Assembly (NCBI GenBank): GCA_019428825.1
Contig: JAHYJU010000003.1
Coordinates: 1-37,606 of the forward strand
Length of the DNA: 37,606 nt
Reading direction: 5' to 3'
Source: Patescibacteria group bacterium
GTDB lineage: Bacteria; Patescibacteriota; WWE3; UBA101185; UBA10185
The position numbers were made by a program, and so were the translations under genes. The notes beneath the pieces are model-generated. The model did not search any database. It had not been told where the DNA came from and was given only the letters and a program-made list of their open reading frames with translations. The first letter of the stretch is position 1; each line of letters begins with the position of its first letter. Positions 302 to 20,588 of the stretch are shown piece by piece.

Positions 302-458
302 ATAGAAAAAGATAAGGAAGAATTGAAGTTAAAATCAAGGCTGAAGTAGCAAGAATAATAATGATTTTAGTTATTGTGTCCTTCTTGAATATTTTTTTAA
401 CTTTCTTCTTGAACGCCTTCTTTTTATCTTTTTTAAATAAATCAGATATTTTTTTCAT
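300..458 (-). CDS. Small basic protein with a C-terminal TM helix, 52 aa (MKKISDLFKKDKKKAFKKKVKKIFKKDTITKIIIILATSALILTSILPYLFL)
   Basis: Translated by hand. ATG overlaps the tyrS stop (ATGA), suggesting translational coupling; Lys-rich N-terminus and hydrophobic C-terminus. Confidence 0.6.
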   Translation of the reverse strand: MKKISDLFKKDKKKAFKKKVKKIFKKDTITKIIIILATSALILTSILPYLFL

Positions 459-1666
459 TTATTTACCTCATAAAACTTTCTTTTACCAAACTTAACTATA
501 GTACCTTCTTTAAAATCCACAACCAGGAACGGGTCTGTAATTTTATTACCATCTATCTCTACCCCACCCTGTTCAATAATTCTTCTAATATTACTTAATG
601 AATTTTCCTCGTTATCAACTTTTTTCAAAAATTCAATTATCTGGAGAGTTCCGTTTACATCTGTTTTTGTAGTCGCTTCAGAAGTAATATCTTTATTCTG
701 CACAGTTTTTTCAAAAAATTCTTCTGCATTCTTAGCTTCTTTATCTCCTTTAATCATCTTAGTTATTTCGTAGGCCATAATCTTTTTATATTTCATTGGA
801 TTTTCTTCGGTTTTAATTTTTTCTTGAATTTCCCATATCTCTTCCAAAGGCATGTCGGTTAATAAACGAAGTCCTTTTAGAATAAGTTCATCGGGATAAG
901 ACATAGCTTTTCCATAAATATCCTCAGGGGAATCATTTAGGTTGATACCATTACCTTTGGTTTTACTCATAGTGATTGCATCAGGGGCTTCCATAAGCTC
1001 GTGCCCTCTCACAAATTTTTCTTTATTTATCATTACACGGGATAAACTTCTTCCCATCAACATGTTGAATATTTGGTCATTACCACCGATCTCCAAATCT
1101 ACTTCCATGGCAACGGAGTCATATCCTTGCATCAATGGATAAATAAACTCCTGTAATCCTATGGGAGTTAGTTCTTTTAATTTTCTCTGAAAAAGATCTC
1201 TTTCAAGCATTTGTTGAACAGTTGTTTTGGACATTAGGTCGATAATATCTTTAAGACTAAGTTTTGAAAGCCATTCTGAATTTCTTTTAAAATAAGCAGG
1301 GTTATCCCCTTCGAAATCAATTAGTTGGGATGCTTGTTTTTGCCAACCTTCCATGTTTTTCAAAATATCTTCTTCGGTCATAATTTTTCTATGCTTACCG
1401 TCACTTGGGTCGCCGGCGATAGCGGTAAAATCACCAACTAAAAATATTACCTCGTGACCTAGTTGTTGAAGTATTCTCAACGCTCTTATACCCATTGCGT
1501 GCCCGATGTGTAGGTAGGGTCCCGTAGGGTCGAATCCTGAATAAGCCTTAATCCTTTCCCCGGACATCAATTTTTCTTTTAAAGCTTCGGGTGAGGGGAT
1601 TATAGTCTCAACACCCCTTGTTAGGAATTTTTCTATTAGTTTTTCATCTTTTAGAACTTTTGGCAT
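455..1666 (-). CDS. tyrS: Tyrosine--tRNA ligase
   Basis: GFDPTG..LHIGH (HIGH motif), MSKT (KMSKS-like), YPLMQGYD, GGNDQ and a C-terminal S4-like domain. Start placed at ATG 1666, just after a TGnTATACT -10. Confidence 0.97.
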   Translation of the reverse strand: MPKVLKDEKLIEKFLTRGVETIIPSPEALKEKLMSGERIKAYSGFDPTGPYLHIGHAMGIRALRILQQLGHEVIFLVGDFTAIAGDPSDGKHRKIMTEEDILKNMEGWQKQASQLIDFEGDNPAYFKRNSEWLSKLSLKDIIDLMSKTTVQQMLERDLFQRKLKELTPIGLQEFIYPLMQGYDSVAMEVDLEIGGNDQIFNMLMGRSLSRVMINKEKFVRGHELMEAPDAITMSKTKGNGINLNDSPEDIYGKAMSYPDELILKGLRLLTDMPLEEIWEIQEKIKTEENPMKYKKIMAYEITKMIKGDKEAKNAEEFFEKTVQNKDITSEATTKTDVNGTLQIIEFLKKVDNEENSLSNIRRIIEQGGVEIDGNKITDPFLVVDFKEGTIVKFGKRKFYEVNK

Positions 1667-1692
1667 ATGTTGAAAGTATATCATCTTTTTCA

Positions 1693-1741
1693 AGGGCTCA
1701 GCCTAGGGCTGAGCCTAGGGCTGAGCCCGGGGCTCAGCCCT
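1693..1741. repeat. Tandem array of four 12-bp palindromic units (AGGGCT[C/G]AGCC[T/C]), REP-like
   Basis: AGGGCTCAGCCT AGGGCTGAGCCT AGGGCTGAGCCC GGGGCTCAGCCC read directly. Confidence 0.9.
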
Positions 1742-11481: not shown

Positions 11482-11835
11482 TTAAAGGTTTTTCTTAACT
11501 TTATCCACTATCTCATCAAAAGATGCGGGGTCTTGAATAGCTATCTCCGATAACATTTTTCTGTTCAACTCAATTTTTGATTTTTTTAAGGCGTTAATAA
11601 ATCTGCTGTACATAATCTCATGTTTGGTTAAAGCTGAGTTTAATCTTGATATCCAAAGTCTCCTTAGATTACCGGGTCTTTTTCTTCTACCTCTAAAGGC
11701 ATGTTCCCCGGCTCTTAATACAGCCTCACTTGCCTTTTTATAATTTTTGCTTCTATTACCCCTATACCCTTTTGCAAGTTTTAATACTTTTTTATGTCTT
11801 TTTGCGGCGCTAGGCCCACCTTTTACTCTTGGCAT
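11482..11835 (-). CDS. rplT: 50S ribosomal protein L20
   Basis: MPRVKGG...KLAKGYRG...LWISRLN...LNRKML; canonical operon position. Confidence 0.97.
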   Translation of the reverse strand: MPRVKGGPSAAKRHKKVLKLAKGYRGNRSKNYKKASEAVLRAGEHAFRGRRKRPGNLRRLWISRLNSALTKHEIMYSRFINALKKSKIELNRKMLSEIAIQDPASFDEIVDKVKKNL

Positions 11836-12053
11836 TATATTTCCTTTCCATGCTTGTTCAGCATCTTTTTAAACATTTTTTTATGACCTTTGTTTTTCTG
11901 TTCAGAAACACCTGTATTTCTGGTTTTATTAGGACTACTTTTTTTCTCTTTTAAGTGGCCCATACCTACACTTTTCTTCATTATTTTACCTGTTTTTGTT
12001 ATCTTTACTCTTCTAAGTAAAGTTTTTTTTGTTTTTATCTTTTGTTTTGCCAT
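11835..12053 (-). CDS. rpmI: 50S ribosomal protein L35
   Basis: KIKTKK...RRVKITKTGKI...H; lies between infC and rplT. Confidence 0.93.
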   Translation of the reverse strand: MAKQKIKTKKTLLRRVKITKTGKIMKKSVGMGHLKEKKSSPNKTRNTGVSEQKNKGHKKMFKKMLNKHGKEI

Positions 12054-12059
12054 ATTAAT

Positions 12060-12566
12060 TCACTTTCCTACAAACATTGCCCAAACGGTATTACCCAATC
12101 TTTTGGGCTCTTCTTCAATTTTTGCTACTTCATTAAGTTCTTTTTCAATTTTCCTGATTTGATCTATTGCTACCTCAGGGAACATTGCTTCCCTACCCTT
12201 CATTTTTACTGTTATCTTAACTTTGTCTCCATCGTCAATAAATTCTTTTGCTCTTTTAACAAATCTTTGCATATCTCCTTCTCCTGTGGTTGGGCTCAAT
12301 CTAAGCTCCTTTACTTCAGTTTTTTTACTTTTTGCCTTTGCTGTGCTTTCTTTCTTTTTTTCGTCGTATAAAAACTTAGCAAAGTCTACTATCTTAGCCA
12401 CCGGGGGGTTGGCGTTTGGAACTACTAAAACAAGGTCCAAATCATCTTTTAAAGCTATACCCAATGCTTCACTTGTTTTCATCACACCTAAATTTTCGCC
12501 TTTAGTCGAAATTACTCTAACTTCTTCTGATTTTATCTGTTGGTTTTTTGTGTACCAGTTTGGTAT
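12060..12566 (-). CDS. infC: Translation initiation factor IF-3, probable ATA start (168 aa)
   Basis: IF3 motifs DLDLVLV..PPVAKIVDF and KVKITVKMKGRE. The frame extends 27 codons upstream of the track start (NQQIKSEEVRVI) to an ATA lying 7 nt after AGGAGG. Confidence 0.93.
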   Translation of the reverse strand: MPNWYTKNQQIKSEEVRVISTKGENLGVMKTSEALGIALKDDLDLVLVVPNANPPVAKIVDFAKFLYDEKKKESTAKAKSKKTEVKELRLSPTTGEGDMQRFVKRAKEFIDDGDKVKITVKMKGREAMFPEVAIDQIRKIEKELNEVAKIEEEPKRLGNTVWAMFVGK

Positions 12567-12593
12567 ATGCTTTCCTCCTAAAACCTTAGTAAA

Positions 12594-14390
12594 TTACCAC
12601 AAATTGAGAGATTTGGTCAAATACATTTTTTCAATTTTCTCAATTACTTCATCAAGGGGTTTTAACCCAAGATTCTCTTCAGTGCGTAGTCTAACACTTA
12701 CTCCATTATTTTCAATCTCTTTATCCCCGATTATAAACATATAGGGAATTTTCTGCATTTGAGCATCTCTTATTTTTGCTTGCATTGTTTCAGATCTGTC
12801 GTCTATTTTTACTCTTATGTTTTTCTCTTTTAGCTTTTCGGAAACTTTTTGTGCGTATTCAATGTGTTTATCACCAATAGGTATTATTTGGACTTGTAAG
12901 GGACACATCCATACAGGAAACGCTCCGTTTGTATGCTCTATATAAACTCCCATGAATCTTTCAAGTGATCCTAAAAGTGCCCTGTGTATCATGAATGGTG
13001 TTTTTTGATCCCCACTGTTGTCTATGTAGGTCATGTTGAATTTGCTCGGAAGATTAAAATCTACTTGTATAGTTGAAAGTTGCCATTTTCTACCTATAGC
13101 ATCGGAAACTTTGATATCAATTTTTGGACCATAGAATACTGCCCCACCTACATCCGTAATGTAGTCTTCAAAACCAAAATTTTTGAGAACTAGTTTTAAT
13201 CCTTCTTCGGCTTTATCCCAATCTTTATCTCCCCCAATGTATTTTTCCTTGTTCTCAGGGTCTCTTACCGATAAATTAACTTCAAAATCGTCAAAACCGA
13301 ATGTTTTTAGGACGAACATAGTTAAGTCCATAGCTTCCATAAGTTCATCGTGAAGTTGTTCCTCGGTGCACATTATGTGGCCGTCGTCTTGGGTAAATCC
13401 TCTTACTCTGGTTAAACCTTGCAAAACTCCACTTTTTTCATATCTGTAAACTGTTCCCATCTCTGCTGTTCTGAATGGAAGTTCTTTATAACTTCTAGGT
13501 CTGTGATTGTAAATTTTAATATGCATAGGACAATTCATAGGTTTTAACCTGTATTGCTCATCTTCTATTCCAAAGGAGTTATACATGGCGTCTTTATAAA
13601 AATCCAAATGCCCGGAGTGTGACCATAGAGCTTCACTTGCAATATGAGGAGTTGTTACCGGTAAATACCCTCTTTCAAGATAAGTGTTAAAGGCAAACTC
13701 CATGGCTTTGTGTCGGACAAATGCCCCGTTAGGCATCCACAGAGGAAGTCCTTGACCAACCTCGTCGTCCATAAAGAAAAGTTCCATTTCTTTCGCTATA
13801 TTTCTGTGATCTCTTTCTTTGGCCTTTTCAATCATCTCAAGATATTCATCTAGTTCTTCTTGAGTTTCAAAAACAGTTGCATAGATTCTTGTGAGCATTT
13901 TGTTTTTTTCATCACCGTGCCAATAAGCTCCGGCAACACTTAAAAGTTTGAAAGCGCCGATGCTACTTGTTCTTCCAGTGTGGTTGCCCGCACACAGGTC
14001 AATATCATAGTATCTTCCCTCTTTGTTCCCTATTTCACAAACTGTCGGATTTCCTCCGTCTTTTTCAATTTCTCCTATCATTTCAAGTTTAAAAGGATTA
14101 TCTTTGAAAATTTCTTTTAATTCTTTGAAACCGGCATCTCTCATTAAAATAGGAAGATTTGCTTCTACAATATCTCTCATTCTTTCTTCTATTTTAGGAA
14201 AGTCCTCTTCTGTTATTTTTCCTTCGTAATCGAAATCACCGTAGAAACCATTTTCTATTGGAGGTCCCATTACTTTTTTTGCTCCCGGGAATAAACTTTC
14301 CACAGCCATATGCATGACATGTTCTGTGCTGTGCCTTAGAGGGTACAGCGGATTATCTTTGATTTTATCTATTACTTTTTGTTTTTTCAT
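12594..14390 (-). CDS. thrS: Threonine--tRNA ligase, lacking the N-terminal TGS domain
   Basis: RHSTEH, GPPIENGFYGDF, RDHR, LKPMNCP, RVRGFTQDD, FYGPKID and HRALLGSLERF. Confidence 0.98.
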   Translation of the reverse strand: MKKQKVIDKIKDNPLYPLRHSTEHVMHMAVESLFPGAKKVMGPPIENGFYGDFDYEGKITEEDFPKIEERMRDIVEANLPILMRDAGFKELKEIFKDNPFKLEMIGEIEKDGGNPTVCEIGNKEGRYYDIDLCAGNHTGRTSSIGAFKLLSVAGAYWHGDEKNKMLTRIYATVFETQEELDEYLEMIEKAKERDHRNIAKEMELFFMDDEVGQGLPLWMPNGAFVRHKAMEFAFNTYLERGYLPVTTPHIASEALWSHSGHLDFYKDAMYNSFGIEDEQYRLKPMNCPMHIKIYNHRPRSYKELPFRTAEMGTVYRYEKSGVLQGLTRVRGFTQDDGHIMCTEEQLHDELMEAMDLTMFVLKTFGFDDFEVNLSVRDPENKEKYIGGDKDWDKAEEGLKLVLKNFGFEDYITDVGGAVFYGPKIDIKVSDAIGRKWQLSTIQVDFNLPSKFNMTYIDNSGDQKTPFMIHRALLGSLERFMGVYIEHTNGAFPVWMCPLQVQIIPIGDKHIEYAQKVSEKLKEKNIRVKIDDRSETMQAKIRDAQMQKIPYMFIIGDKEIENNGVSVRLRTEENLGLKPLDEVIEKIEKMYLTKSLNLW

Positions 14391-14456
14391 ATATTTGTCT
14401 TTCTGATTATATCTGAATTTTGCTTAAATGAATACGTTTTATGAGTTTTAATAAGA

Positions 14457-14522
14457 TTATTTCCCCGCTCTTGGCGAGGTTGTGGTTGTTGTAAAGATTG
14501 TGTAAAAAAGATTATTTTTCAC
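14457..14522 (-). CDS. Putative Thr-rich leader peptide, 21 aa (MKNNLFYTIFTTTTTSPRAGK)
   Basis: GTG...ACA ATC TTT ACA ACA ACC ACA ACC...TAA; five consecutive Thr codons; ends 66 nt upstream of thrS. Confidence 0.65.
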   Translation of the reverse strand: MKNNLFYTIFTTTTTSPRAGK

Positions 14523-14530
14523 TGTGTTTA

Positions 14531-14559
14531 TTTTTACTACTTGAGATTGGGTGTGTCAA
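14531..14559 (-). promoter_or_regulatory. Sigma70-type promoter for the thrS leader
   Basis: TTGACA (14559-14554), 17 nt spacer, TAAAAA (14536-14531), 8 nt before the GTG; the -10 is imperfect. Confidence 0.5.
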
Positions 14560-14569
14560 TGAAAAAGCT

Positions 14570-14968
14570 TCACAAAATTTTTGTGAAGCTTTTGGCAGTA
14601 GCTCTCTTCGATAATCTGTTTTCAATAAATGTGACCTTGTCGGAAAAAGACATTTCTAACCATTTTTCTTTTTCAGCCCCTTCATTGGGAACTCCAAAAT
14701 AGGCACAGAATATTGCGGCTTCGTAAAGATTTATAGGGGTTTTTTCTTCTTTGGGAATCGGAACGAATCCTCCATTTTTATCTTTTTTTACTCCGCAAAG
14801 TTTTTCTCCGATTGTTATAGTCCTTGGATCTTGTTTACCAACTTTCGTAGTTAAGAAGGTTAACTTACCTGATTCTTTATCAGTTTTGGTATTTTCTTCA
14901 TTTGGTACAAAATCCAAAATCTCGAACAAAGGTTTATCTGTCACATAATCGTTATTACTCTCAGCCAT
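14570..14968 (-). CDS. Hypothetical protein, 132 aa
   Basis: ORF with SD AGGAG and TTGACA and TGnTATAGT elements upstream; no family recognised. Confidence 0.7.
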   Translation of the reverse strand: MAESNNDYVTDKPLFEILDFVPNEENTKTDKESGKLTFLTTKVGKQDPRTITIGEKLCGVKKDKNGGFVPIPKEEKTPINLYEAAIFCAYFGVPNEGAEKEKWLEMSFSDKVTFIENRLSKRATAKSFTKIL

Positions 14969-20511: not shown

Positions 20512-20588
20512 TGGTGGGCGGTAAAGGAATCGAACCTATGACCTCCACAATGTCAATGTGGCGCTCTAACCGACTGAGCTAACCGCCC
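20512..20588 (-). tRNA. tRNA-Val(GAC)
   Basis: Cloverleaf GGGCGGTTAGCTCAG...CCACA-TT-GAC-AT-TGTGG...GGTTCGATTCC...ACCGCCCACCA with encoded CCA. Confidence 0.96.

Follow-up and report, generated by a model that had tools for sequence, protein, structure and literature searches.

How does a bacterium with a tiny genome match the supply of an aminoacyl-tRNA synthetase (aaRS) to the charging of its cognate tRNA? Bacteria of the Candidate Phyla Radiation (CPR), or Patescibacteria, possess tiny genomes with few recognisable regulators and, to our knowledge, almost nothing is known regarding their nutrient sensing. The question is raised by a 37,606-nucleotide (nt) stretch of DNA from a Patescibacteria group bacterium, which was analysed at its full length and is hereafter referred to as the window. 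Therein, the gene for threonine–tRNA ligase (thrS; 598 amino acids; 12594–14390, minus strand), assigned by the Pfam families tRNA-synt_2b, HGTP_anticodon, and tRNA_SAD and by NCBIfam TIGR00418 (673 bits, cut-off 384), is preceded by a short open reading frame (ORF) that carries a run of threonine codons and abuts a GC hairpin. This leader is probably a ribosome-mediated attenuator, i.e., a leader-peptide sensor of Thr-tRNA for thrS. Sequence comparison establishes the ORF with its frame, Thr run, and hairpin, and likewise the leaderless promoter, the restriction to thrS, and the kinship with classical attenuators. Leader peptides on aaRS genes are already known; what appears to be new is that a design lacking a terminator is the conserved norm in this class.

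The leader ORF occupies 14457–14522 on the minus strand, to which the features described below also belong, and comprises 21 codons and a stop codon (GTG AAA AAT AAT CTT TTT TAC ACA ATC TTT ACA ACA ACC ACA ACC TCG CCA AGA GCG GGG AAA TAA) encoding (M)KNNLFYTIFTTTTTSPRAGK. Its GTG start codon (14522–14520) lies 8 nt past the -10 box of a distal promoter, P1 (14531–14559), in which the -35 element TTGACA (14559–14554) and the -10 element TAAAAA (14536–14531) are separated by a 17-nt spacer. The proposed sensor is a run of five Thr codons (ACA ACA ACC ACA ACC; 14478–14492), and a sixth Thr codon is located at 14499–14501. The hairpin CCUCGC-CAAGA-GCGGGG (14463–14479; arms 14479–14474 and 14468–14463) is part of the minimum free energy fold and is the only robust structure in the predicted fold of the leader; its 5′ arm starts within the last Thr codon, and 3 nt separate the end of the hairpin from the stop codon. 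An A/U-rich, G-poor spacer follows (14412–14456), with no U-tract directly 3′ of the hairpin and with a semi-conserved block (CTCATAAAA at 14437–14445 and ATTCATTTAA at 14425–14434). The leader stop codon is separated by 66 nt from the thrS ATG (14390), and a proximal -10 box, TATAAT (14406–14411), is found 15 nt ahead of this ATG as a candidate second promoter, P2. The promoter, the upstream ORF (uORF), the Thr run, the hairpin, a copy of AAATAATCTT at both ends of the leader ORF, and the second TATAAT had all been listed in the initial annotation of this DNA, and each was read again in the sequence.

Evidence from the one sequence alone is weak. A promoter scan of 1.2 kb returned four promoter-like sites, with 3.5 expected. 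Nevertheless, a stretch of at least three ACN codons followed by a GC hairpin occurs 15 times in the 842-kb host genome, only two of these occurrences being intergenic and the thrS leader being the sole five-codon run. The AAATAATCTT direct repeat is not kept in the closest relatives (L003, L007, and L010) and is treated as incidental for this reason. The leader element is considered more than chance because it is conserved in relatives.

The host genome (G000) comprises 842 kb in 71 contigs and is 92% complete. Public relatives collected by the similarity of threonyl-tRNA synthetase (ThrRS) bear the labels Patescibacteria, CPR3, and Microgenomates-type candidate phyla. Of a set of 41 relatives, 38 yielded a ThrRS, and 29 of the relatives' upstream loci were fetched. 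A sample of the same class comprised 128 genomes, in 124 of which ThrRS was detected, and 80 further upstream regions were added to reach 106 usable thrS upstream loci, one per species-level genome; three loci in which the leader stretch reads N (L005, L178, and L186) and one that is too short (L149) were left out. The signature was defined on nucleotides only, as in-phase ACN repeats abutting a GC hairpin. The layout of the window recurs at 15 of the 29 thrS loci of relatives, and one more reads N exactly there. Among the 106 class loci, the ACN run with the abutting hairpin is present in 47, representing 35 genera: 38 of 68 loci in the family of the window (26 of 44 genera), and 3/3, 4/9, 1/2, and 1/10 loci in four other families, from whose leader-bearing genera the ThrRS proteins are only 43–64% identical. 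Statistics quoted for 43 loci omit one leader of the classical type (L021) and three that are doubtful or distant (L136, L157, and L161).

A looser definition, namely a short ORF with at least three Thr in five codons, is satisfied in 63 of the 106 upstream regions on the thrS strand and in four on the opposite strand, although approximately eight of the 63 matches come from frames antisense to a divergent gene alongside. In these regions, Thr is the sole residue with an excess over the opposite strand; the next, Leu, stands at 38 versus 53. Specificity was also addressed with the pattern ACNACNACCCC-N3-8-GGGG, which in the 128 genomes yielded 58 rows corresponding to 50 distinct sites in 46 genomes. 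According to hand counts against the thrS coordinates, 35 of the 50 sites lie just upstream of thrS on the same strand, one is uncertain since thrS is fragmented, and 14 lie elsewhere. The reversed control pattern gave 14 matches, and because the sites away from thrS equal these in number, the element is regarded as specific to thrS. The window leader itself is not matched by the pattern owing to its stem of the CCUCGC type. In family f4 (L031 and L181), T-T-P codons and a CCCC/GGGG hairpin end a long upstream ORF (…ALEEIK…TTP…), which could represent either a leader fused to the upstream gene or a hairpin serving as the 3′ structure of that gene.

The reading frame of the Thr run is clearly singled out. 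Traced upstream, the Thr frame reaches an ATG, GTG, or TTG codon 6–40 codons away without interruption in all 47 loci, which is the case for only 2 and 9 loci in the other two frames; likewise, a stop codon lies inside the hairpin or at most 12 nt after it in 41 of 47 loci, versus 12 and 13 in the other frames. The leader ORFs in the 43 loci comprise 16–26 codons (median, 21), with a median spacer of 67 nt to thrS, and these frame and length data imply that insertions and deletions involve whole codons. The run itself is two to six codons long. Excluding its last codon, ACA is used 61 times, ACT 25, ACC 21, and ACG twice, such that each of the four Thr codons is represented; at the final position, 41 of the 43 loci have ACC because this codon forms the stem. 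tRNA-Thr species with UGU, GGU, and CGU anticodons are all present in the host genome. The N-terminal sequence of the leader peptide is not conserved, and the conserved peptide end, T(3-6)-P-x-x-G, is the encoding of the Thr run and the CCCC...GGGG stem. This points to selection on the RNA and on Thr decoding and not on the peptide product, and a functional micropeptide is unlikely because only this end, dictated by the RNA, is conserved.

Furthermore, the hairpin has been maintained through changes of its sequence. In the 43 loci, 13 stem versions and 34 loops of 3–6 nt were counted by script, and all stems still pair: ACCCC/GGGGU (14 loci), CCCC/GGGG (6), ACCCCU/AGGGGU (6), CCUCGC/GCGGGG (4), ACCCCA/UGGGGU (3), and ACCCCG/UGGGGU (2), with CCCGCU/AGCGGG, CCCUCA/UGAGGG, AGGCCU/AGGCCU, and others in addition. 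The CCCC:GGGG core is nearly invariant, and covariation is confined to the alternative stems and to pairs that flank the core or lie inside it. In L004, L016, and L020, the stop codon sits in the loop, such that the G-rich arm is not translated, and yet this arm is kept. Multiple alignment with MAFFT leaves the loops ungapped and thereby misaligns the 3′ arms, for which reason stems were counted by script together with the pattern scan; RNAalifold on 26 leaders recovered only two core hairpin pairs and no conserved structure between the hairpin and thrS. Rfam returned no leader or T-box match in the window at the gathering score or in the region at E≤10, and none at the leader position in ten related loci at E≤1, where a single Leu_leader row (25 of 50 bits) lies approximately 3 kb away. 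The expectations of the initial annotation regarding an in-frame Thr run in relatives, synonymous variation within it, and a covarying hairpin are thus borne out, the last with the nearly invariant core as its limit.

The start of the leader ORF is equally characteristic. A -10-like box ends 5–9 nt before the start codon in 42 of the 47 loci, and a -35 element matching TTGACA in at least five of six positions lies 16–18 nt upstream of this box in 24 of 43 loci, compared with 1.4% at random positions. Since the -10 box lies only 5–9 nt before the start codon, the leader mRNA is taken to be leaderless, in agreement with the near-leaderless uORF originally proposed. In the host genome, the distances from promoter-like TTGACA/-10 pairs to start codons peak at 6–10 nt (18 cases, nine of them at 6 nt), which suggests that leaderless mRNAs are frequent there. 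In family f8 (L170–L173, L177, and L179), an extended -10 box of the TGTTATCAT type is found 7–8 nt before the thrS GTG or ATG without a leader ORF, and thrS itself looks leaderless; one member of this family (G033, L021) has a classical Thr attenuator instead.

The kinship with classical attenuators was traced in public genomes. According to hand counts in 80 public thrS loci, convincing Thr-run leader ORFs are present in nine of 28 with CPR-type names and in four of eight metagenome-assembled genomes labelled Pseudomonadales, Gammaproteobacteria, or Pseudomonadota, and in none of the 44 other loci (Chloroflexota, Acidobacteriota, and others). In other Patescibacteria (L021, L046, L048, L054, L099, and L100), a Thr-run leader is followed by a hairpin with a U-run terminator before thrS. 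Briefly, the Thr codons in this classical form pair with a G/U-rich strand, and a GC hairpin and a U-run follow. Masking of the Thr run switches the predicted fold to the antiterminator in L021, L046, and L099; in L048, L054, and L100 the terminator is present and the fold switch is not predicted. A third form ending …TTSPDRA (L052, L066, and L092) resembles the …TTTSPRAGK of the window. The minimal hairpin corresponds to the tip of the classical 1:2 hairpin, e.g., ACC AAC CCC TAG GGG in L048, and the classical relatives provide the minimal element with a functional pedigree.

Several known systems share parts of this design. In the thr operon leader of Escherichia coli (thrL; Rfam Thr_leader, RF00506), a run of Thr codons senses charged tRNA-Thr; it differs from the present element in that it serves biosynthesis genes, mixes Thr and Ile codons, and follows a four-segment terminator design. 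In E. coli pheM–pheST, an aaRS operon is governed by ribosome stalling on a leader peptide with many residues of the cognate amino acid. By contrast with the thrS leader, which is leaderless and without a U-tailed terminator, pheM is led by a Shine–Dalgarno (SD) sequence and uses a classical terminator and antiterminator. The same gene responds to the same signal, i.e., the status of tRNA-Thr or ThrRS, through T-box leaders in Firmicutes and through a tRNA-like operator in E. coli. Neither corresponds to the element described here: no T-box matches at the thrS leader, and a tRNA-mimic operator of the E. coli type was ruled out, the loop being variable, with 34 sequences in 43 loci. In mycobacterial leaderless poly-Cys short ORFs (sORFs), a run of one codon type causes ribosome pausing, which is reported to unmask a downstream ribosome-binding site (RBS); the leaderless single-codon-run design is shared, whereas the RBS-unmasking model finds no support at the thrS leader.

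The layout of the window element is strikingly similar to that of thrL–thrS in Streptomyces lividans, as far as the published description extends. The RNA-sequencing annotation of strain TK24 places leaderless leaders before leuS, trpS, alaS, and thrS, and its description of thrL gives one hairpin, no U-rich tract, and a termination mode that is "not clear" (PMC8079986). On this description, a leaderless sORF directly precedes thrS in both cases, with Thr followed by Pro (…ETTPGF… versus …TTTP/TTTTSP…), and a single hairpin without a U-rich tract is common to both, the hairpins being likened by description and not by sequence. The two differ in that S. lividans belongs to another phylum and its thrL has only two Thr codons, compared with three to six in the element described here; moreover, thrL is known in that account from the annotation of one strain, whereas the element described here is derived from a comparison across genera. 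No literature report of such a leader in Patescibacteria or the CPR was found in a search that did not cover all journals.

On these grounds, the following course of events is proposed. Transcription from P1 would start at or beside the GTG, giving a leaderless mRNA on which the ribosome loads at the 5′ end. After approximately ten codons, the ribosome would meet the run of three to six Thr codons, to be read in the window by tRNA-Thr(UGU) and tRNA-Thr(GGU). With a Thr codon in the A site, the ribosome would cover the 5′ arm of the hairpin, and a terminating ribosome would cover the whole hairpin; because the hairpin spans the last Thr codon to the stop codon, it could form only where the leader is free of ribosomes. 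A shortage of charged tRNA-Thr would stall the ribosome on the run, the hairpin would stay open, the C-rich, G-poor leader RNA would be covered, and transcripts would reach thrS. When charged tRNA-Thr is plentiful, the ribosome would leave, the hairpin would form, the leader RNA would lie naked, and P1 transcripts would be lost before thrS, with P2 supplying basal expression. The element would accordingly respond to the charging of tRNA-Thr with starvation as the ON state, a polarity in which stalling is assigned to ON by homology with the classical relatives, and with a read-out step for which several candidates are weighed below.

The favoured read-out, to which somewhat less than an even chance is given, is termination by Rho on a leader free of ribosomes, by analogy with the well-established Rho attenuation under the control of uORFs; protection from RNase J/Y by the stalled ribosome is placed second, followed by non-canonical pausing or termination at the hairpin. 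In the systems described for tnaC, speFL, cruR, and mgtA/corA, a stalled ribosome masks RNA that Rho could use, and in cruR the Rho utilisation (Rut) site lies inside the uORF and is shielded by the stalled ribosome (PMC12360218). As far as that account goes, these systems are similar to the proposal in needing no intrinsic terminator and, for cruR, in the position of the Rut site inside the uORF; they differ in the trigger of stalling, which there is a small molecule or an ion with an effect on the nascent peptide or the ribosome, and at the thrS leader would be a cognate-codon run beside a short candidate Rut. Rho is encoded in the host genome (PF07497, 85 bits) and in 118 of the 128 class genomes, and the part of the leader ORF that precedes the hairpin is rich in C and poor in G (C/G ratio, 3.5).

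The most durable of the rival explanations are two, both considered improbable. In the first, read-out occurs by mRNA stability: a ribosome stalled 30–45 nt from the 5′ end would block the 5′-end-dependent decay of P1–thrS mRNA by the exonuclease RNase J and by RNase Y, for which ribosomes stalled by erythromycin on erm leaders in Bacillus are a comparable 5′ stabiliser. Consistent with this explanation, the host genome encodes RNase Y (516 bits, above the cut-off); a gene resembling RNase J, split over contigs C52 and C70, scores 377 bits and falls slightly short of its cut-off, and no match to RNase E/G was found; the leaderless transcript places the stall site close to the 5′ end, and no terminator is needed, in keeping with the lack of a U-run. 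Protection of the mRNA, however, offers no role for the strictly conserved hairpin or for a stop codon positioned within or beside this hairpin, and the classical relatives use termination.

The second, of similarly low likelihood, holds that the hairpin acts on RNA polymerase, as a pause hairpin or a weak terminator assisted by factors of the NusA/NusG type, whose formation the stalled ribosome prevents. The correspondence with the tip of the classical CPR 1:2 hairpin in L048 speaks for it, the 1:2 hairpin being the pause element of textbook attenuators, as do the T-rich positions 4–14 after the hairpin, where T occupies position 8 in 31 of 47 loci. Against it, A is found at positions 1–2 in approximately 70% of loci, which is contrary to the requirement of intrinsic termination; in the window, the gene upstream ends in a canonical U-tailed terminator; and a pause alone makes no decision. 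Past the hairpin, a motif AA(A/C)TT(C/A)ATAT was discerned by eye at 18–20 nt, and a Gibbs search returned TTTC(A/C)nnn(T)AA 24–34 nt after the hairpin, with the block at equivalent positions in 41 loci. This block could mark a zone where transcription pauses or terminates, or a site at which a factor binds; as a -35 element of the proximal promoter it was rejected, since its spacing to the -10 box varies from 14 to 28 nt.

That the element no longer regulates anything in this lineage is regarded as quite improbable. The leader would then be a decaying attenuator remnant or a separate tiny gene, with thrS transcribed from the proximal promoter, and the lack of a terminator, the probable P2, and the loss or decay of the element in L006, L028, and four genomes of genus g12 are in line with this. 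Nevertheless, the promoter, start codon, frame, run, hairpin, and stop codon are kept across 26 genera of the family and in four other families; stems and loops have turned over with pairing kept, and unselected sequence would not hold the frame open in 47 of 47 loci.

Translational attenuation of the ermC or mycobacterial poly-Cys type, in which a stall would free the G-rich arm to re-pair and unmask the thrS RBS, is very improbable and was rejected as a general mechanism: a UUUCC-type anti-SD-like block does lie between the hairpin and thrS in L009, L011, L012, and L124, and the predicted accessibility of the start rises on masking of the run in L012 and L196, but the mean change in predicted SD/start accessibility over the 43 loci is +0.009 (nine up, nine down; weak evidence, as it derives from folding prediction of A/U-rich RNA), no structure is conserved between the hairpin and thrS, and the window has neither a clear SD for thrS nor a UUUCC-type block.

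Returning to the ribosome-mediated attenuator, several observations weigh against it. The strict signature is absent from 59 of the 106 loci, and the leader has been lost in L006, a genome of the same genus as the host. In genus g12, L122 and L123 carry an intact leader, and L120, L121, L125, and L127 carry decayed ones, in which the Thr run and the stem are broken and which adjoin the divergent neighbouring gene; this pattern indicates recent leader loss. The element appears to be dispensable, because 59 of 106 loci lack the signature and four of six g12 genomes have decayed copies. Relatives are not independent, and the counts given above overstate the number of independent events. The whole window leader folds no better than shuffled sequences (z -1.66). 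No U-run terminator follows the hairpin in the window or in 45 of the 47 class loci, as had been noted for the window from the start, and the window contains no mutually exclusive pair of antiterminator and U-tailed terminator. The first two bases after the hairpin are A in 33 and 34 of 47 loci, respectively, and because no terminator follows, the read-out step is not visible in the sequence. Regarding Rho, a leader-bearing genome that is 97% complete (G027) has no Rho match; the candidate Rut tract is only approximately 45 nt long and mostly AC instead of YC; and the C/G ratio falls to 1.14 after the hairpin, which together with the short tract makes a weak Rut site. Finally, P2 could bypass the leader.

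The caution of the initial annotation regarding this bypass was well placed, in that the proximal TATAAT is probably a real second promoter that is independent of the leader. Close to thrS, a TATAAT-like box occurs in the majority of loci irrespective of whether the leader is present, and in L006, where the leader is lost, the proximal TATAAT block is kept after a terminator. Probably, thrS has a constitutive promoter to which P1 and the leader add a regulated share.

Taken further, and more tentatively, the leader may be a two-strand ribosome-occupancy switch in which one hairpin of 4–7 bp is the sole structure and gates Rho loading or RNase J/Y attack. As part of the same tentative proposal, this minimal form would have evolved from the classical four-strand attenuator of other Patescibacteria and taken its place, and would recur, independently or anciently, in Streptomyces. 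Such a switch, if real, would be a simpler design for amino-acid sensing than the textbook attenuator. If the attenuator reading itself is correct, CPR cells use their ribosomes to monitor tRNA charging directly, and it is the synthetase that they tune and not a biosynthetic pathway. The natural series from classical terminator-bearing leaders through minimal, hairpin-only leaders to decayed ones could show how attenuators simplify and how leader-peptide regulation operates without an intrinsic terminator, a question equally left open for thrL–thrS of Streptomyces. A leaderless ORF ending in T(3-6)-P-x-x-G together with a CCCC/GGGG hairpin furthermore offers an annotation signature for a gene that is at present unannotated.

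No threonine synthase or homoserine dehydrogenase was found in the host genome at its 92% completeness, on which account threonine must be imported. The suggestion that cognate-codon uORFs also precede other aaRS genes was not supported: at 11 other aaRS genes, located with four Pfam families, no cognate-rich leader was found, the Ala, Arg, Cys, Glu/Gln, and Phe enzymes lying outside this search. A Leu-rich sORF, MKIIQMILLL, just upstream of leuS was rejected as a leader, since no L-rich ORF occupies the same position in any of the 29 relatives' loci with the leuS N-terminus; two relatives have unrelated L-rich ORFs further upstream of leuS, and the sORF is treated as chance. Of the candidates from a genome-wide scan for sORFs with amino-acid runs, two were followed, namely an Ile run before a 608-amino-acid protein that matches no Pfam family and a Thr run ahead of a UvrD/PD-(D/E)XK helicase; a link to cognate function was found for neither.

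Upstream of the leader in the window, an intrinsic terminator of a 132-amino-acid ORF (14565–14591) is formed by AAGCTTCACAAAA and TTTTGTGAAGCTT followed by a T-run, as read in the sequence, and its hairpin is also kept in the same-genus loci L003, L005, L007, L008, and L010. By its position, this terminator would isolate the leader promoter from upstream transcription. In six same-genus loci (L003, L005, L006, L007, L008, and L010), an extra hairpin, not found in the window, lies between the proximal TATAAT and the thrS ATG. Its stems in the 5′ untranslated region differ by species (GAGCG/CGCUC, AAGCC/GGCUU, and UGCGGU/ACCGCA), and three of the six have UGU or CGU, i.e., a Thr anticodon, at the loop centre. 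Throughout this subclade, to which the window belongs, thrS is without a clear SD. A ThrRS-binding operator at this extra hairpin is conceivable.

Downstream of thrS, infC, rpmI, and rplT follow on its strand (11482–12567) and are possibly co-transcribed with it. An apparent ATA start codon of infC is seen at 12567–12565, 5 nt after an AGGAGG SD sequence and right after the thrS stop codon (region 12565–12596); the listed GTG ORF of infC (12485) omits approximately the first 22 positions of IF3_N, a domain of the protein. Autoregulation by IF3 is classically marked by an unusual start codon. A tRNA-Val(GAC) gene (20512–20588, minus strand) is located 6 kb upstream of thrS on the same strand in the window, and it is found directly upstream of the thrS leader or thrS in L021, L078, L092, and L169; its placement may be a remnant of synteny.

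With respect to terminator style in the host genome, 62 of 754 gene ends show a GC-rich hairpin with mixed tails, and many of these are repeats of the GGGCTCAGCCC type. Palindromic GGGCTCAGCCC- and GACTCAGTC-type repeats, resembling repetitive extragenic palindromes (REP-like), are clustered in intergenic regions of many contigs; in the window they occur at approximately 1694–1760, upstream of a tyrS-like gene (455–1693, minus strand). These REP-like repeats precede several aaRS genes (on C1, C47, and C63) and sit at many gene ends.

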